A stretch of DNA of 64,000 bases from contig OX597815.1 in assembly GCA_951406725.2 (NCBI GenBank), positions 61,752,001-61,816,000 of the forward strand, written 5' to 3'. A model generated the notes under the pieces. That model was not told where the DNA came from. It saw only the letters and a list, made by a program, of their open reading frames with translations, and searched no databases. The position numbers and the translations under genes are program-made. The stretch's first letter is position 1. Each line of letters opens with the position of its first letter. The stretch comes from Octopus vulgaris (lineage: Eukaryota). Below are positions 598 to 53,300 of the stretch, in pieces.

Positions 598-982
598 TAC
601 TCTTTTACTTGTTTCAGTCATTTGACTGTCGCCATGCTGAAGCACCGCCTTTAGTCGAGCAAATCGAACCTAGGACTTATTCTTTGTAAGCCTAGTCGGT
701 CACCTTTGTCGAATTGCTAAGTTACGGGGACGTAAACACACCAGCATCGGTTGTCAAGCGATATTGGGGGTGGGGGGACAAACACAGACACACAAACATA
801 TATATATATATATACATATATACTACGGGCTTCTTTCAGTTTCGACTACAAAAATCTACTCACAAGGATTTAGTCGGCCTGAGGCTGTAGAAGAAGACAC
901 TCAAGGTGCCTCGCAGTGGGACTGAACCCGGAACCATGTGGCTGGTAAGCAGGCTACTTACCACACAGCCACTCCTACGCCT
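598..982 (-). mobile_element. tRNA-derived SINE family A (CORE-like), near full length
   Basis: Minus strand starts AGGCGTAGGAGTGGCTGTGTGGTAAG (A box) ... GGTTCAGTCC (B box). It has an internal (TA)/(CA) tract and a 3' hairpin CAGTCAAATGACTG before an AAGTAAAAGAG tail. More than 10 homologous copies occur in the window. Confidence 0.9.
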
Positions 983-31163: not shown

Positions 31164-31860
31164 CAGTACTGTGCAAAAGTCTTCGGTCACTTTAAACTAT
31201 TGTAAAATTCTACTAATTGTTAACTTATAACTGGATGTTTCACGTTGCGTTTTTTTGCAAATGAAACATTAGCTGTTGGAGTCATTTTCATACCTAATCA
31301 TTATATTATGTAGTTGGAGTTCTCAATGAGAAGGGAAGATGCGAGAATTTGTGACAAGGCCTCCAGGAAAGCGAAACGACCCACGTTACAGGAGGAAACA
31401 AGTGTAGTTTGGAGGTAAGAGTTTGATGCTTCGGGGATACGTAAAAAGTGATGGTTCAAGAAAGCTGGTTAAAATTGACGGTGACTTGAATAATGCCAAA
31501 TACAGGCAGTTGCTGAAGAATAATTTGATACCATACTTGGATGAAGTTGAGCTTTTTCATCATGACAGAGCTTCATGTAACAGATTGCATGCAACACAAC
31601 AGGGTCTGGCTGATGAAGGTGTTACTGTATTGAAAGATTGGCCAGCTCAGAGCCCTGACTTAAATGTCAACGAGGAAATGTGGACAGAACTAAAGAGAAG
31701 AGTTCGTCAGAAGAATCCACGCAATCTTGAAGTGTTGTGGGTGCTTAGCCATAGAGAATGGCATCTCATACCTGTAAAGATGGGGACAAATTTGTACGTA
31801 TCTTTTCCCAGGCGCATCGAAGCAATTATTCAAGCTAACGGAAGCCACACGAAATACTAA
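31164..31860 (+). mobile_element. Internally deleted Tc1 element with transposase C-terminal half (ORF 31423-31860)
   Basis: TA-CAGTACTGTGCAAAAGT TIR; FHHDRASC and WPAQSPDLNVNEEMW (DD34E-type); RIEAIIQANGSHTKY end. Confidence 0.88.
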
Positions 31861-35984: not shown

Positions 35985-36341
35985 ATTTGCTCAGGTCGTC
36001 CCGAGCAACCCTCCGAGCAGTGTCTCAGTCAATCCCTATTTCTGCAACATACTTTCATTGGCCGTGACCACGTTGTTGACAACACAAGCTGTCATCCCAT
36101 CAGAGAAGGGAACAAGGTACACAGGATCTAACTCAGAAAATTGAAAATATGACCAAACAGTCTAAGTTGATGATCCTTAATCATACATGTAACAGGATAC
36201 ATCACAGTTTCTGAATATAGTTGTTGGTTGAATAGCAGATCTAGCCAATGGTAACCCATAATCCTCTTAAGCAGCCCGGAACCAAAGGAGTTCAGGCAGC
36301 TCCTAAGGGCTCCAGAGAGTGTCCAAGTCTTGCAACTATAT

Positions 36342-36342
<1 letters not shown>
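35985..36342 (-). mobile_element. RTE-clade LINE 3' fragment
   Basis: YSCKTWTL...LKRIMGYHWLD..N..LY...QLRLFGHI. Confidence 0.8.
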
Positions 36343-36384
<42 letters not shown>

Positions 36385-36515
36385 TATAAAGTACACCCCC
36401 ACCAAATAGGTGTATTTATAAAATAACGCTGGTTAAATTCAAGACTATTATTCAACTGTAGTTTCACCATTTGATTTTTCAGAAATATTGCGTTAAAGAA
36501 ATATTGGTAATATAT

Positions 36516-36928
36516 TCTTTTCTACTCTAGGCACAAAACACGAAATTTTGGGGGTGGGGGCCAGTCGATTAGATCGACCCCCAGTATGCAACTGGTACTT
36601 AATTTATCTAACCCGAAAGGATGAAAGGCAAAGTGGACCTCGGCGTAATTTGAACTCAGAACGTAAAGACAGACGAAATACAGCTAAGCATTCACCTGGC
36701 GTGCTAACGTTTCTTATTTCTTTATTGCCCACAAGGGGCTGAACATAGAGGGGACAAACAAGGACAGACAAAGGGATTAAGTCGATTACATCGACCCCAG
36801 TGCGTAACTGATACTTAATTTATCGACCCCGAAAGGATGAAAGGCAAAGTCGACCTCGGCGGAATTTGAACTCAGAACGTAACGGCAGACGAAATACTGC
36901 TAAGCATTCTGCCAGCTCGCCGCCTTAA
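36516..36928 (-). mobile_element. Dimeric SINE family B
   Basis: Two monomers joined by a CCCACAAGGGGCT..GGGACAAACAAGGA linker; same architecture as 54890-55283. Confidence 0.88.
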
Positions 36929-37539
36929 TATTGGCAATATATCAACTTAATGAGTTAGATGGTGGTGGGAAGAATGGCTATTGAAAGAGGGGCAAGGGGT
37001 GGTGGGTGAAGGATATGTTGTAGTGAGAGAGATGTTGATGTGAGTGGGGGTGATGTGAGGTTGTATAAAGTACGAAAAGGGATAGAGAGAGAGAGAGAGG
37101 GGGGGAGAAAAGAGGAGTGGGTAATGCGGAACATTCCATTCCATGAAAGATGGGATTATCAATCAAAATAATTCGAAATGAAGTAATCCAATGGGTCAAT
37201 CCTTTAAATCTTCATAATCGTCTCTATGACTACAAAGAATTTCGAAACCCATTGATTCCAGACTTTCGAATTTTTAAAGTTTTTAAAGTGTAAGACAAAG
37301 AAAAGAAAGATCCCCAACTGAGTGGAGACATTTGTTTGTTTTGTGAGTTACTTTGTGACATCACCGGGGCCGGTATTACGAAAAAGTACCCACCATATTC
37401 TGTAAATGACCGACATTGAGAAGGGTACCCGGCCGTCTTCAGGCATCCTGAAATCTTCAGAATACAACAAAAGTGAATGTTACATTTTGAAAAAATACTA
37501 ATGAAAGAGAGGTTTAACCATTCAGGTGTACATGAGTAA

Positions 37540-37635
37540 ACTTGCAACGGACTGGTGTCTCGTCCAGGAGGAATGTTGTCATCTAAGTCACTTATAGTCC
37601 ATAGACACACAGTAACAGGCCCTATGAATCCTGGG
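37540..37635 (+). mobile_element. V-domain-like SINE 3' fragment
   Basis: GCAACGGACTGGTGTCTCGTCCAGG...GGCCCTATGA is similar to 20222-20293. Confidence 0.55.
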
Positions 37636-37667
37636 ACTTATGATAGTAATACTCAGAGGTTGATAAT

Positions 37668-37698
37668 TATGATGATGATGATGATGAAGGAGAAGAAG

Positions 37699-37774
<76 letters not shown>

Positions 37775-37985
37775 TGTAGTAGTAGTAGTAGTAGCAGCAG
37801 CAGTAACAGTAGCAGTAGCAGTAACAGTAGCAGAAGCAGTAGTAGTAGCAGTAGTAGTAGTAGTAGTAGTAGTAGAAGAAGAAGAAGAAGAAGAAGAAGA
37901 AGAAGAAGAAGAAGAAGAAGGACGATGACGACGACGACGACGATGATGATGATGGTGGTGGTGGTGGTGATGATGATGATGATGC

Positions 37986-38020
<35 letters not shown>

Positions 38021-38072
38021 GTGATGATGAGGATGAGGATGATGGTGATGAGGATGATGATAATGAGGATGC
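37668..38072. repeat. Compound trinucleotide microsatellite (GAT/GAA/GTA/GCA/GAC/GGT)
   Basis: Directly visible. Confidence 0.95.
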
Positions 38073-38215
38073 AGTAATCTCACCTATGAAGAAATATTCT
38101 ATAAGAAAACTTTTATCCAATACAGTTTTACACATAAACGTCAATAAAATTTACTCGCAATTAACAATATTTCATTTATTGTGTTTATCAAAAACTTTGC
38201 AGAACAATTCATGTA

Positions 38216-38295
<80 letters not shown>

Positions 38296-38348
38296 AGATG
38301 TACTCGCATAACAAGTAATTTGATCTGAGATCGTGTGCTGAAACGAAA

Positions 38349-38627
38349 ACAATTGCAGCGTGGATGGTGTTTGTAAGCCATTTAAGAAACACACAAAAGC
38401 CGTTCGATTCACTTCAACATTTAAGTTTAATTTGTCAAAATATTTTCGTCGCTAAAATCCGCGACCTGTTCACTGACAAAAATCAAATGCAGCACGGGTT
38501 TTTGTCAGTGAACAGGTCGCGGATTTTAGCGACGAAAATATTTTGACAAATTAAACTTAAATGTTGAAGTGAATCGAACGGCTTTTGTGTGTTTCTTAAA
38601 TGGCTTACAAACACCTTCCACGCTGCA

Positions 38628-38632
<5 letters not shown>
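38349..38632. repeat. Fold-back palindrome (134 bp arms, 16 bp spacer) in a TA-flanked insert (38292-38632)
   Basis: 38349-38482 is the reverse complement of 38499-38632 with one mismatch. Confidence 0.95.
38501..38550 (+). ncRNA. Minimal type I hammerhead with G3:C8 core (mirror copy 38431-38480, minus)
   Basis: TTTGTCA-GTGAACA-G-GTCGC(GGATTTTA)GCGAC-GAAA-ATAT-TT-TGACAAA. Confidence 0.65.
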
Positions 38633-38718
<86 letters not shown>

Positions 38719-39026
38719 CGCACAAGACTTATACAAAAACTTGTTTTAACAAAACACTTTAACAAAATGCAAAATATTTTAACCGACGTCGAATAATTTG
38801 AAATAGTTCTACGTTTGTAGTATTAAGGAAATACACCAAAATATATTTTATCTATTCTTCTGTCTGGGCTACATTTTGTATCACGGTATATTCCATTCCA
38901 CGCACTCCGTATTACGACTAAATAGTTTCAATTTGTATAAAATCCTGAAAACTACCGTTTTGCGATTATAACTATATTCTTGACTAAAAAAGTCTGTTAG
39001 TCTGAGAGCGTTCTCATATATATATA

Positions 39027-40760
39027 CTAGCATTATGACCCCTCGTTGCCGGGTCATAGTGCTAGTGCATGTATGTATGTGTATATATATGTGTACATAT
39101 TACATGTACATCTATATATATACATCTACACATAAAATACAAAATACAAAGTTATATCTTAATATCGCTAGTGATAACAATACTCAAAATATATAACAGA
39201 CTGGAATTGTAGGCCCGTCTCTTGCAATTTCGATCAATTGTATCTTGTCCTCCCTCTTGTATAGAAGTGTGACTACAATCCAGCCTACCTCTACTTCTGG
39301 GGTACATTTTTATTTTTTATCCGGGACGTCCTACGTCCCAGATATAAAGGTAAAAATAAAATATTTCCACTTTGCAAGGTTCGAGTCGAGTACTCCCTTG
39401 CACGCTCCGTTGACTCGAACCTTGCTTCTATTGTGGCGAATTTACCGCCTCTCGTTAGATATCTTTCATAGTCGCACCAAGACTGCTTTCCTCCAGGTGT
39501 TCAAATATTTTTTCCTCTCTACATTGTATACTTTATAGACAATAGTCTTTTCTTTAATTTAATTTTTTATTTCGTTTGGTGATGTTATCCTATATTCAAC
39601 GTCTTTGTCGGTGATCAATCCGAAATAGGTTTGTATTTCTTCCATTTTAATTTTAATGAATTTGCGCCCGCCGACGGCTGCAGCGAAATTCAATTTTGGA
39701 CTTTCTTCTATCGAAGGCATTCTAACAAAAATGCTTCCGTGTAAACGGTGAAAATATTGTTAATTTCCCCAAACAGGGACACAATTCAATTTTTAAACAA
39801 TAACCAAAGCTCCTTCTCCCAAAGGGGGAGGGTTACAGTTTACAATTATTTAACAAATGCAACACAACAACGTTTCCCTTACGAGGAACCAACAAACGCG
39901 ATAACAATAGTTAAACAGTAATAATAATAATAACAACAAACCTTACGGTAAATCAAAAAGCTGTACGCAGTTGAAGCTATAGTCCTTTGTGTATAAGAAA
40001 TAAACCAACAGCAGTACTCAATAGAAGCGGCTGTTCGAAAAAACAGACATTACATACAGCCAAACTTCATATAGATACTTAATGCTAGCTAATTAGCAGA
40101 TAATCTAATGTAAAAGCCGTGGTAAACTGTATGTGCAGACCTCCATCTGGACTATTCCATTTCTGCACGCTAATTTTATTTTTTATTTATTCCCATTCAT
40201 GTGATATTACTTATTCAAGTTCAAGTCATTGATGCAATTTTATACCAATTGCTATTTTTACTTTTGTTATGTTACGATTATATTATACTTTAGTTTGATT
40301 TTAATTATTACTTACTACATATAATTCAATTGTTATTATTATCTCTAATTTTTATTGTTAAAGTGAAGGTATCTGACATAAAATAGAGAAATGTTTTTGT
40401 CTCACTTTTAACACGTAATACTGAAATAGTGGAGAAGATATGATATTGCTATGGGCTCGCCCTAGGCAAGAAGTTGAACATTTTTTGCCCATCAAACTAC
40501 ATGGACGCTAAGTAAGGCATGTGTAAAATTTGAATGAAATTGGTTGTGTAGTTCTCAAGTTTTAGGGAATCGTAGTGGAGAAGATATGATATTGCTGTGG
40601 GCTCGCCCTAGGTAAAAAGTTAAAAAATTTTTTTCCGATGACACTCCCCAGACCCTAAGTAAGGCATGTGTAAAATCTGAATGAAATTGGTTGTGTAGTT
40701 CTTCAGTTTTATGGAAACACACAGACAGACAGACACGCATTCTCAGTTTTATATATATAC
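39027..40760 (-). mobile_element. Non-autonomous Helitron
   Basis: The 5' end TATATATAAAACTGAGAATG.. is shared with the adjacent Helitron. A 3' hairpin plus CTAG|T lies at 39027, and there is a ~145 bp internal tandem duplication (40428-40570 / 40575-40715). Confidence 0.85.
39215..39720 (-). pseudogene. Captured fragment resembling LINE (L1/Tx1-type) ORF1 N-terminus
   Basis: MPSIEESPKLNFAAAVGGRK...KEKTIVYKVY...YLTRGGKFATIEARFESTERARE...PLYLGRRTSRIK, broken by stops and frameshifts. Confidence 0.5.
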
Positions 40761-40761
40761 A

Positions 40762-40831
40762 CTAGCAGAGATACCTGGGGTTGCCCGGTTACATTCAATT
40801 GAGGAATTAGATTTTTCTGTTATATATATAT

Positions 40832-40913
<82 letters not shown>

Positions 40914-43900
40914 ACATACACACACATATATATGTATATTAATATAAATACATGAAAGTACATGAAGTTTGTTAAAAAAAAGGGGATCATGTATATACCT
41001 CCTGGCTGTTGAGATTATAACACCTCGTTGTAAACAATGTTCCTTGTTTTTCCTTGTGGAGCATATACAAAAAGGTTTCTTTTGGTTCCTACTCTTGAGC
41101 AGCCAACATACAGTTGCCTATGCGAGAAGCAGGGCTCTTCCAAGAGAAGACCAGCTACAGAGAGGGTTTGACCCTGAGATTTGTTAATGGACATGGCAAA
41201 GCTGACACGAAGGGGGAATTGCAGTCTTCTGAATGTAAATGGAATTTCTGCTCCTGGTGGAGTAAGAGGAATTCTTGGAATAAAGACGTCATCACCTTTT
41301 CCACATCCAGAAAGAATGATCGTCTCGATAACGTGTGACATCATTTTCATTATCACCAGTCGTGTTCCATTGCAAAGTCTTGGTGGTTCCAGATTGCGAG
41401 TAGCATTACAAGAGTTCCAACATTAAGTGCTAATATGTGTGGAGGTAGTCCAGGAGGCTCCAGTGAATTGAGAAATTCAGGAGGATAGTTCACAACTTCA
41501 TTTATATCTGGAATTGCATCAACAGACTTGTAAGTGTGTATAGTGCCGGGAAGAGAATGCATTAGCTGTTGATTAATTTTGTTAACAGCGACGTTTTTTT
41601 GAGCATATATTGATCTTTCACACAGCCAATTGTGATTTTGGTAGTTTTGTGTGAAGTTGGGAAAGACTTTGTTTTTGAGGTCATCTACAGAATTAACAAG
41701 AGAGGAAAATGATCACACTTCCATTTGTCCCGCAGCATCGAGAGGCATCTTGCCTTCACCAAGTGTCAAAATGTCCTGTGCAAACTTTGTGGACATTTTG
41801 TCGCCGTGTAGCTGAGCTCTCATGTTAGTGGTGAGACTGAGGATTGTAACATGATGCCACAGGGTAAAGGACTTTAGGCATCCTTGGACTTCATCTGCTC
41901 TAGTGCCTTTCGGAATGACAGGAAGAGTTTGCCTGAAATCACCTGACAACAGAAGCGTTACACCTCTCATTGGAGCCTGACAGTCTCGGATGTCTTTCAG
42001 GGCTGTATCTAATGCTTCCAAAGCTCCCCTGTGAGCCATAGTGCACTCATCCCAGACAATTAGATGACACATTTTAAGTACTTGTCCCTGATCTGAGCTT
42101 TTGTTGATGTTGCATGAAGGTATTTCGGATGCTGCTAAATTGAGAGGGAATTTAAAAGTTGAGTGTGCTGTCCTGCCACCGGATAACAAAGTAGCTGCAA
42201 TGCCAGAGGAGGCTACAGCTACTGCAATGTCCTGATACTGCCTTACTTCTGCAAAGAGAAGCTTTGTAATAAATGTTTTTCCTGTCCCTCGCGTTGGCGT
42301 ACACTGTAAAGAATAATTCTGTAGGCCTGCAGCTGGTCTGGAAGTAATTTAGGCTTATTTTCAACAATGTACTTTGAAAGCGCTTGAGTGTCGTAGGTTG
42401 TTTCACGAATGACAGCAGTGGGAAGGCTATTTGACCCTGATCTGAATACTTGTGGCAGGCCATAGTCGACAATTCATTTCCACCCAGTTTAGCAATTCTG
42501 TCTTCAATGTCAATGAGTGTTTTGTTATAGATTTCATTGCTGATACCCTTTATGTTAGGATAGAGCAGTTGAGCTTGGCGCTGAAAGTCTTCAGCCAGGT
42601 TGTCTCTATATTTGAGCCATAGAGTGGCCGGATCACACAGTTCGCATGCCTGTAGTAATACTGCAAATAGTGCCCTGAGACTTTTAGGTGATTGTGATAA
42701 AGCAGCCTCTCCTAAAGTTACATCTTATTGTGCACCATCTTCTAACAGACCTTGTCGATAGCAGGCTTCTCTGTATGCTGTGCAGACATGTCCATGAACG
42801 GTTTTTAGGGTCTGGAAAGACGTTGGCCCTCTGACCTCATGCAGTAGTAGACGAAGGTAGAAGCACTCTTGTTGAGTGGGATGCACTTTGTATACTCGCC
42901 CAAGGCAAATGTGAAACTTAATGCCAGGGTATCCATGAACATTTAACCTGCTTTCCGTGGGGCCCATTTTTTTCCATTCCAAGTGTAGTACAATGGAATC
43001 TGTGGATACAGCAAGGTTTGAGCGAATGGATCCACTTGAGAAAGCTTGGAGAATGCAGTGAGTGTGCTATCCCTTGGTTCCTCTGCCAACAGAGAAGCAT
43101 TAGCATCGGTGAAGTACACTCTTTGATCATTTTCCAGGTGCACTGCAAGCTGTTGAATGGCGGGGTGTCGTTGGTGAATTGGAAAGCCAAAGATGCGCCA
43201 GAAAGCCTCGTTGCTACTTATGTACCGTCCCACCTGATAATGCGTCACCTCATCCTGGCAGTATTCTTTTTGAAGTCCAAACATTGCAGCGTCAGAACCT
43301 TTGTTTACATATTTGCAAACGTACTTGATGGATTTAACGGAGTTGCAAAACTCAACGTTGATGTGGGCATTGAAAGTCTTTGACAGTATGGAACAATCCA
43401 TCTATTAACAATATCGTGCTGTCCGATAGTTGCTGTGAAACCTCCGTCTTCTGGTTTTCTGCGTCTGTATGATGGATACCCATCAACACCTGTCTGAGTT
43501 TCTTGTTGGAACCTCCTTGGAAATCTTTTTGAACATATGCTGTCCTTCAAGCATGGTGAGTTTATGTTGAATCCACGCCCACATGGACCATGTACCATGT
43601 TTGCTTTAACTATTTCGTATAGTTCTTTGTCGATGTCATTGGAATTGATCTTCGCTGAGAGCCAAAGCAGGATACGAGCATGTGGAAGGCCCCTTTTTTG
43701 CCACTCGATTGTGTACATGTCACATTGTATGGGCCCAAAGACTTGCCCTTTTTGTATGGGCTCCATGAGAGAGATTAACTTCAGATGGAAAACTCGGGCG
43801 AGGAGGTCATGCCTGCCTTTCGGCTTTTGACCGAAAAAGAGTTCGGCCTGAATCTCCTTCCACTTGGGATTGCATGTGAAAGTTATGAATAGGTCAGGTC

Positions 43901-45258
43901 TGCCGTAATGGCGGACAAAGGTCATTGCATCCTGTGTTCTTTCATGTATGTATCGGGGACTTCCAGTGAATGTAGAAGGCAAGATGCAAAGTCTTCCTAT
44001 GTTTGTTGGAGCAGCATCATTGTTGATGGCATCTCGGAGATGGATGTAGCTGTCAGATGGCAATATTTTTTTTATGTAACCTGATGAAACAAAATCTCTC
44101 TGATTCCATTTTTGCGCACATATCGACTGCAAATTGATGAAACAGCTCTCGAGACTGGTGGTGGTGATTACAGCAGTTGTTTCGGGTCATAAATCTGTAT
44201 GAGTAGAAGTTCATGCAGGATATTGGCTTGTTGAGATGTTCATTAACATTTTGAGGATGTTGCTGTAGTAGACCGATGTGGTAGCCATCCTCACCGTTAA
44301 TAAACAGAAGTGGGTATTGGAGTGAATCGTATGATCTGTGTGTTTCACTAATTCGTTGGAGGGTGGTGTCACGTCGCCTGAGGACAATGTCTCTGGGATT
44401 GTCCTGTTCACCGTGAAGGAGTACAGCTATTTCATTGCATGTGGGTGCACTGTAACGGCCGGATTGTTCCCTAGCTGGTCTTTTCTGGGCATCAATGATA
44501 ACATTAAAATTTGATGAAACTTCTGTTTCCAAGGTATACTTGAAGCTACGTACGTAGATGTTTTTCTGGTGCAAAAGGTCTTGCAGTTGCATTGTCAATT
44601 TCCCCAAACAGGGACACAATTCAATTTTTAAACAATAACCAAAGCACCTTCTCCGAAAGGGGGAGGGTTACGGTTTACAATTATTTAACAAATGCAACAC
44701 AACAACGTTTCCCTTACGAGGAACCAACAAACGTGATAACAATAGTTAAACAGTAATAATAACAACAACAAACCTTTTTAATTTATCCCCATTTATGTGA
44801 AACCACTTATTCAAGTTCAAGTCATTGATGCAATTTTATACGAATTGCTAATATACACGCACACACATAATAAGGGTGAAAAAATGAATATTAATATGAA
44901 TTGAAAACCAGTGGTGTAGCATATAAGACCATAGCGGATCTTCTTCTAGCACAATGGATGACCACTGTTAATGGTTCATCCCTGTTATATAATACTTTCA
45001 CTTTAATAGTTTCAGTATTAAAGTGAAAGTGTCTGCATTACAATAGAGAGATGTTTTTATTTCACTTTTAACACGTAATACTGAAATAATGGAGAAGATA
45101 TGATATTGCTGTGGGGTCGCCCTAGGCAAAAAGTTAAAATGTTTTGCCGATGACACTTCCCGGACCTTAAGTAAGGCATGTGTAAAATTTGAATGAAATT
45201 GGTTGTGTAGTTCTCAAGTTTTAGGGAAAAACACAGACAGACACACACACATTCTCAG

Positions 45259-52406: not shown

Positions 52407-52439
52407 CATCTACCACAAGTAGTCTTAAATACAGATCAG

Positions 52440-53300
52440 TAGCTACATACGTCCCGCAGATGCTTTGGAAAGGCGTTAAATAGCTGCAGGCTCTTGAATC
52501 TCAAACTATTGAAGTACATGGTTCTCGCCTTAGATGAGACAGCTGGGACTTTTGGAACAGTGCAGTGGCATCCAGTTCGAGGTCTGGTATATCTTTCGAT
52601 TCCAAAGTTTGGTGCCAGCCCCTCCAGTATCTTCCACACATATATGATTGCATATATCTCTCGTCTTCGCTCCAGGGAGTAAAGTCGTAGCTCTTTCAGT
52701 CTCTCCCAGTAGCTCAGCTGTTCTATTGATGCAATCTTCCTCGTGTAGCATCGCTGAACCGCCTCAAGTTCTGCTATTAATCCTACACCGAAAGAGAGCA
52801 GTAGTTCAGACAGTTGAGGACACATGTCCTCCATAGGACCAGCATAGCTTCCTGGTTCCTTGTTCTGAAGGTTCTCAGAATCTATCCAGCCATTCGTCTG
52901 CACACTTCCACCATCTTGGTGATATGTATATGAAACGATGCATCATTGCTCATATCAATCACAAGATGAGGTACTGTATGTGATTCTAGGATTGCCGCTT
53001 CTTTGGTCTAGAGTATTGTTGTTGTGATTTCTGAGCACAAATTAACTGGTAACGGAGGTCTTGGAATTTGCCTGCATTAAACTGCATGTTGTTGTCCTCA
53101 GCCTATTTATATATGACATCTAGTTCTTTCTGTTGAAGATTAGCATCAGAAGGTTCCTTGACTGCTTGTACTACTTTTGTGTCATCGGCATAGCTAGTAA
53201 GTGTGGCTGTCTGTGTAACTGATTGCATGTCTGAAAGAGTCACCATGAACAGCAGTGACCTCTATACGGTTCCCTGGAGCACTCCACTTTCTATTACTGC

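Follow-up and report, generated by a model that had tools for sequence, protein, structure and literature searches.

A folded-back Penelope-like end repeat from Octopus vulgaris carries a putative hammerhead with a natural G3:C8 pair

Positions 38293-38632 of the analysed stretch of 64,000 nucleotides (hereafter referred to as the window) hold a short end repeat (pLTR), inverted at its 5' side, which stems from a Penelope-like retroelement (PLE) and lies within (TA)n; each arm of this fold-back carries a minimal hammerhead motif with a natural G3:C8 pair. It appears probable to us that this motif, predicted from its sequence, is a slow and conditional ribozyme which would cut only as a dimer or in the presence of the element protein. 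An earlier note on this DNA had described a duplicated hammerhead within a palindrome without invoking a retroelement; the palindrome turns out to be the folded-back end fragment of a Penelope-type element.

Results

Structure of the locus

The locus is an inverted repeat between two (TA)n tracts (Table 1). Its arms, 38349-38482 and 38499-38632, comprise 134 nt each and are 99% complementary to one another. The palindrome is asymmetric in that a 56-nt tail (38293-38348) is present on the left arm and absent from the right one. Relative to the predicted cut, the left arm, which is 97% identical to the 3' end of the long copy L064, starts at about -47 and has the tail, whereas the right arm starts at -57 and lacks it. 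The head-to-head duplication emphasised in the earlier note is real inasmuch as both arms carry the motif, but there is nothing special about it, an inverted partner being present for 58 of 101 sampled arms as the usual product of PLE insertion.

Besides this locus, the window contains broken frames at 41713-44667 (-) which, by eye, we take to be Helitron-like (Rep/helicase with GTGKT and DEC motifs), a fragment at 31408-31860 (+) presumably related to the C-terminus of a Tc1/mariner transposase (WPAQSPDLN motif) and a fragment at 52436-52942 (-) which we assume to resemble the C-terminal end of a CR1/L2-type LINE ORF. Two-copy direct repeats are located at 40427-40716 (spacing of about 146 nt) and at 36563-36909 (about 216 nt).

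Table 1. Features of the folded-back end repeat and its flanks (positions of the window).
Feature	Position	Strand	Remarks
Left (TA)n tract	38218-38292		insertion target; target-site duplication unresolvable
Optional 56-nt tail of PLE end repeat	38293-38348	-	left arm only
Left arm, pLTR of PLE family A	38293-38484	-	element sense on minus strand; start about 47 nt upstream of predicted cut
Hammerhead motif copy 1, minimal type I	38431-38480	-	G3 38473, C8 38468; predicted cut 38438/38437
Inversion junction, two letters outside both arms	38485-38486		from sequence and alignment to L064
Right arm, inverted tail-less pLTR copy	38487-38632	+	begins 2 nt past the inferred transcript start
Hammerhead motif copy 2, minimal type I	38501-38550	+	G3 38508, C8 38513, extra G 38515; predicted cut 38543/38544
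Right (TA)n tract	38633-38718		insertion target

The hammerhead motif

On the plus strand, TTTGTCA (38501-38507) and TGACAAA (38544-38550) form a stem I of 7 bp which leads into the core GTGAACA (38508-38514) and an extra G (38515). Stem II (GTCGC/GCGAC) consists of 5 bp closed by an 8-nt loop, and on the 3' side of the motif GAAA (38534-38537), ATAT, U16.1 (38542) and U17 (38543) follow. The 7-bp stem I, the 5-bp stem II and the GAAA reported in the earlier note were all located in the arm sequence, and the core GUGAACA indeed has both partners of the 3:8 pair exchanged, G3 being found at 38508 (+) and 38473 (-). The stem III given there is palindromic as claimed; the proper helix III, however, is the 6-nt stretch from A15.1 to U16.1 (AAUAUU), while the 8-mer originally proposed takes in A14 and U17. 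The extra G in front of stem II and the UUU triplet, both put forward as caveats, have been described as normal for PLE hammerheads (PMC4209133).

Helices I and II, G10.1-C11.1, an extra nucleotide after A9, GAAA, a palindromic helix III and an NUH site are thus all present. The core deviates from the consensus CUGANGA, as it reads GUGAACA; its remaining positions are intact and 3:8 is still a Watson-Crick pair. Because of this departure from CUGANGA we class the motif as a hammerhead variant, and the G3:C8 core likely represents a new, putative ribozyme variant of the PLE hammerhead. A single arm folds into helices I and II with z = -3.2 compared to shuffles. With positions 3 and 8 left free, a hammerhead scanner recovered both copies of the window plus one weak match lacking a 3:8 pair, and in 40 shuffled windows, searched on both strands, no match with a Watson-Crick 3:8 pair scored at least 13, the one match of equal score being unpaired at 3:8. 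None of the 42 Rfam matches obtained at E <= 10 for the region 36000-41000 is a hammerhead.

Folding predictions let G3 pair with U17 at a probability of 0.67, which extends helix I and likely corresponds to an inactive fold. In a dimer, pairing of the longer palindrome AAAAUAUUUU could make A13, A14 and U17 unavailable. For the hairpin of a read-through RNA, the predicted folding energy amounts to -234.6 kcal/mol versus -29.0 kcal/mol for one arm. Since such an RNA would form a perfect hairpin, the window locus itself is, by this prediction, unlikely to be a source of active ribozyme unless a single arm is transcribed alone.

Identity of the element

Starting from the window repeat, a genome search yielded 406 candidates, 40 of which were scored. 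The dispersed copies are 95-100% identical to the window repeat, its left arm included. They share the outer end beside (TA)n, which directly adjoins most of the copies displayed, while their inner ends vary and in many cases turn into an inverted copy. The longer copy L031 joins the motif to an ORF end that encodes a GIY-YIG domain (Pfam match on the C-terminal 230 aa of the ORF, E 3.8e-5). The open frame of the copy L063, 839 aa long, comprises RT motifs, a CX3CxxC linker and an endonuclease; the motif follows it at a distance of about 1 kb in the same orientation. Inspection of its translation by eye reveals two Cys within the GIY-YIG core as well as two His (CCHH, as defined in the portion of PMC8557442 on which we draw). 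The RT assignment is based on the source names of relatives and on the best RT stretch of L063, which is 35% identical to the protein P0111, annotated as PF00078; a Pfam search with the whole ORF and a PDB sequence search returned no match. In L064, direct repeats are present at both ends and the ORF starts inside the upstream repeat; in both L064 and L065 the tail region continues into the 5' part of the ORF. All 15 ORF loci of this family, designated family A, have the motif in sense orientation about 1 kb behind the RT and GIY-YIG ORF.

The tail is optional: 57 of the 101 sampled arms end with it and 36 end without 52-60 nt, resulting in two 3' ends approximately 56 nt apart. The pLTRs are arranged as direct repeats (L064) or as inverted copies (L031, the window and the above-mentioned arms with an inverted partner). 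Given its single ORF, in which RT precedes GIY-YIG, its pLTRs and its tail, the element is a C-terminal EN+ Penelope-like element. The CX3CxxC linker suggests the Neptune or Nematis type, the tree calculated here comprising relatives without named reference elements.

The 3:8 pair within family A

Searching the genome with the core plus GAAAATATTTTG and with stem II left free gave 7,666 matches, which fall into two subfamilies with different loop II. The exact stem II of the young subfamily, with positions 3, 7, 8 and 9.1 free, gave 1,917. Both numbers count arms rather than loci, and the reversed-pattern control was 0 in either case. G3:C8 is present in 98 of the first 100 matches listed (counted by eye; the other two show single changes), in 27 of 30 arms of another family-A count and in 176 of 178 aligned arms. 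No copy in the genome was found to have C3:G8 within family-A stems, and in four runs under four species labels no other letter at position 3 or 8 reached at least 3%. G3:C8 is fixed in family A.

The majority sequences of the two subfamilies differ in 3 of 8 columns of loop II plus an indel and in 4 of 153 columns outside the motif, yet in 0 of 42 structured columns; 12 of the old-type loci used in this comparison had been chosen for a stem variant. The ratio of 0/42 to 4/153 is suggestive, although the differences are too few to show selection. A minor variant of stem II resembling a register shift comprises 30 arms only and was treated as noise.

The 3:8 pair in related families

The same genome harbours a sister family, B, whose protein is 54% identical to that of family A and whose frames reach 1,312 aa. 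Many frames of 1,310-1,312 aa were seen, for example in L109 and other loci of the family (such as G000:C12:54616579-54621198). At the same place as in family A, its core reads CUGAUGC plus G in all 47 motifs found and hence combines C3:G8 with C9. Helix I is bulged, helix III is not palindromic, 40 motifs have U at H17 and the other 7 have C, and stem II differs by one compensatory pair (A-U compared to G-C in family A). In family B, too, the 3' end occurs at two places, 158 or 215 nt from the core and hence separated by 57 nt. A second outside probe, its matches being judged by places and open frames, listed only A and B again, the first look having been stricter. In L018 a family-A copy lies directly beside a family-B 3' end with (TA)12 in between, as fits a shared (TA)n target; L020 is also flanked by (TA)12.

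Among 21 metagenome loci of relatives, the strict scanner detected a canonical motif behind the ORF in two. A relaxed descriptor with positions 3, 8 and 9 free, which was written after the candidates had been looked at, was run on 16 of these 21 loci, five with tails shorter than 100 nt being excluded. It found a motif in four of the 16, with C:G in L067, L068 and L069 and U:A in L066. All of these matches are in sense and none in antisense orientation; shuffled tails gave one match in 1,200. The motif of L066 combines U3:A8 with C9 and that of L068 has U15.1:A16.1; they follow the ORF match at distances of about 127 and about 89 nt, respectively. Most of the 12 loci in which no motif was found have short tails or incomplete ORFs, but the tails of L072-L075 are long. 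In L072, a CUGAAGA core, a short hairpin, AAAA in the place of GAAA and a CUAG palindrome occur about 130-170 nt after the ORF match; unscored by the scanner, this is possibly a degenerate hammerhead lacking G12.

In the tree, families A and B are sisters with a support of 100/99 (the row of L072, a wrong frame of 266 aa on a long branch, is to be disregarded). All six families compared have kept a Watson-Crick 3:8 pair, and G:C occurs in family A alone. The covariation at 3:8 that the earlier note had proposed to look for is thus absent between copies, in which the pair is fixed, and present between families (C:G, U:A, G:C). Together with the family-A counts this supports the natural exchange to G3:C8 in a hammerhead homologue, as originally claimed. 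From the sisterhood of A and B it is likely that G3:C8 derives from C3:G8, and the G:C state is a single event among the six families. Replacement of A9 is expected to lower hammerhead activity. The same is expected of the U15.1:A16.1 variant (positions 15.1 and 16.1 according to the part of PMC3088659 used here). The occurrence of C9 in family B and L066 and of U15.1:A16.1 in L068 suggests that the core tolerates change and is under loose constraint.

5' ends of the copies and transcript start

For the survey of copy ends, a 32-mer located 22 nt downstream of the predicted cut served as anchor. It has 3,275 matches in the genome, the first 100 of which listed, all on contig C1, correspond to 87 loci and 101 arms. 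The 5' ends of 58 of these arms are located at -63 to -41, those of 14 at -40 to -4, of four within 3 nt of the cut and of four at +4 to +22; five are found at -140 to -64 and 16 further upstream, some of the long calls being likely inflated by microsatellite matches. The 5' ends do not pile up at the cut, as the four arms found there compare to about 2.4 expected from the local background (22 arms over 63 nt). The two arms of an inverted locus do not count as independent observations, but 17 of the 43 non-inverted arms fall into the same cluster at -63 to -41. This location of the ends, away from the cut, makes it likely that the inserted copies derive from uncut RNA.

Within the cluster, 26 arms end at A -59. 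The letter preceding it is G in 15, C, which is the templated one, in nine, A in two and T in none. After removal by hand of five G which the inverted arm could have supplied and of one duplicate, nine G remain versus two A (p = 4e-5). An untemplated G is expected from the copying of an RNA cap. The extra G at -59 therefore leads us to infer a capped transcript start at about this position, approximately 16 nt in front of helix I.

Splicing would be another conceivable cause of the cluster, since the start resembles a splice acceptor. Immediately in front of the inferred start, L031 shows at about 605-650 (-) a CTAAC resembling a branch point together with a pyrimidine run and CAG, reminiscent of the intron end next to helix I in Drosophila Penelope. 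The copies, however, have no upstream sequence in common beyond one G, as would be expected of an exon, and for this reason the capped start is preferred. For Penelope, an internal promoter with an initiator is described in the part of Schostak et al. (PMC2377424) considered here.

Discussion

According to the mechanism we propose, transcription of the element would begin some 59 nt before the cut site and yield a capped RNA. Using a nick in (TA)n for priming, the RT would begin at one of two sites 56 nt apart, thus including or omitting the tail, and would copy uncut RNA up to its 5' end, which would give rise to solo pLTRs of about 190-250 nt. A second copy joined in inverted orientation near the 5' end would create the palindrome, and the fold-back would therefore be a by-product. 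The C3:G8 pair of the sister family would be ancestral, and family A would have passed through an unpaired intermediate before the swap re-established pairing at 3:8. Cleavage, if any, would serve to process tandem or read-through transcripts and not to make the insertion template. Our best reading is that the G3:C8 motif of the source elements acts as a slow, conditional putative ribozyme. The predicted pairing of G3 with U17 and the lack of enrichment of copy ends at the cut speak against cleavage, and the argument of the earlier note that a compensatory change implies selection for cleavage is not borne out, as the copy ends bear no sign of cleavage and two related families have C9.

Tentatively, these observations might be combined into a wider picture, which we regard as possible but rather doubtful as a whole. 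An active natural G3:C8 hammerhead would have reached fixation in a family which has been mobile in recent times and numbers thousands of copies, the PLE clade to which it belongs having explored three Watson-Crick states of 3:8 as well as C9 and U15.1:A16.1. The attenuated core would be tuned such that capped, uncut RNA serves as insertion template while cleavage is held until a dimer forms or protein is bound, and PLE clades considered to be devoid of hammerheads may hide swapped cores missed by cuganga-based searches.

A different reading, in our estimation unlikely albeit a serious contender, accepts the same element and ancestry and assumes that the motif no longer cleaves. A hammerhead-derived structure would then be kept for protein binding, as a promoter, for RNA folding or by inertia, with G3:C8 arising under relaxed constraint. 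The absence of an end signal at the cut site and the predicted G3-U17 pair agree with this, as does C9, which is fixed in sister family B, a family still having 1,310-aa open frames. Cleavage is, moreover, dispensable for insertion in vitro according to the part of PMC11167929 at our disposal, and the minimal hammerheads of PLEs are weak in vitro and may have other functions (PMC4209133). It is less easily reconciled with two transversions landing on the Watson-Crick complement, with a 3:8 pair in all six families and with the retention of U4, G5, A6, A9, G12 to A14, A15.1:U16.1 and a non-G at position 17. Furthermore, the core has remained unchanged while loop II has changed (3 of 8 columns plus an indel). 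We thus prefer the slow, conditional ribozyme.

That the head-to-head pair is itself a selected device, such as two mutually acting ribozymes or a switch sequestering the fold, is very improbable. Both arms do contain an intact motif and fold-back copies are common. Yet the junctions vary between copies and many inversions cut through the motif, which largely refutes the idea; besides, inverted 5'-truncated copies are a described product of PLE insertion in the portion of PMC8557442 used here, and the read-through hairpin is predicted to be far more stable than one arm (see above). Least credible of all is a MITE or foldback DNA transposon that resembles a hammerhead by chance. The long inverted arms, the TA flanks and the missing Rfam hammerhead match might suggest it, but the linkage to the ORF refutes it, as long copies run into RT and GIY-YIG. 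Moreover, the 3' ends are fixed and the 5' ends variable, whereas such a transposon would show terminal inverted repeats with both ends fixed in every copy; an inverted partner is missing from 43 of the 101 arms, and relatives carry hammerheads at the same place.

G3:C8 has been known as a laboratory rescue mutant, and a family in which it is naturally fixed would supply the piece still missing from the evolutionary evidence for a tertiary pair at 3:8. The sister families A and B, with differently weakened cores and both with long open frames, provide a direct test pair for the purpose of PLE hammerheads. At the scale of a genome, the copy ends support what had been found in vitro, namely insertion of PLEs from uncut RNA, and also indicate where the transcript starts. 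Finally, thousands of motifs within a single animal genome escape both Rfam and the usual CUGANGA descriptors.

Comparison with known systems

Among the texts covered by our literature search, no published natural G3:C8 hammerhead was found; provisionally, we consider it new to the literature, an earlier description being possible. Natural covariation at 3:8 is reported by Perreault et al. 2011 (PMC3088659), the text of which, as far as it was available, gives U3:A8 only; the U15.1:A16.1 variant of that study, cited from the same part, also occurs in our relative L068.

Cervera and de la Pena (PMC4209133) name an extra nucleotide after A9, G10.1-C11.1 and a palindromic helix III as hallmarks of PLE hammerheads and report frequent U17, U3:A8 and a low, dimer-dependent activity. 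Family A shares with these hammerheads the location in the pLTR, the extra nucleotide between 9 and 10.1, G10.1-C11.1, the palindromic helix III, the frequent U17 and the close proximity of motifs on opposite strands. In contrast, the legible rows of their alignment show C3:G8 or U3:A8 only, whereas family A has G:C, and stem I is longer in family A (7 bp).

Of Frangieh et al. 2024 (PMC11167929) and Craig et al. 2021 (PMC8557442), excerpts form the basis of what follows. In the PLE hammerhead studied by Frangieh et al., cleavage is lost with C3G or G8C alone and returns in part when both changes are combined; it depends on the element protein, and it is uncut RNA that serves as insertion substrate. 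The PAc Poseidon PLE of Anolis investigated there resembles family A in its two RT start sites which define an optional tail, in an ORF beginning in the pLTR, in AT-rich targets, in the use of uncut RNA as substrate and in the absence of RNA ends at the cut. It differs in that C3G/G8C is an engineered rescue mutant in PAc Poseidon and the natural, fixed state in family A; in addition, the tail comprises 30-40 nt compared to 56 nt in family A, and the CX3CxxC linker of family A constitutes a further difference.

Craig et al. describe C-terminal EN+ PLEs as being truncated at the 5' side and arranged in partial tandems, with an inverted 5' copy and with a tail at one of the ends. As their searches for hammerheads relied on cuganga-based descriptors, a GUGAACA core would likely have escaped them. 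With the Neptune/Nematis-type PLEs of that study, family A has in common the succession of RT, CX2-5CxxC linker and GIY-YIG, the bias towards (TA)n, 5' truncation, the inverted 5' copy and the tail at one end.
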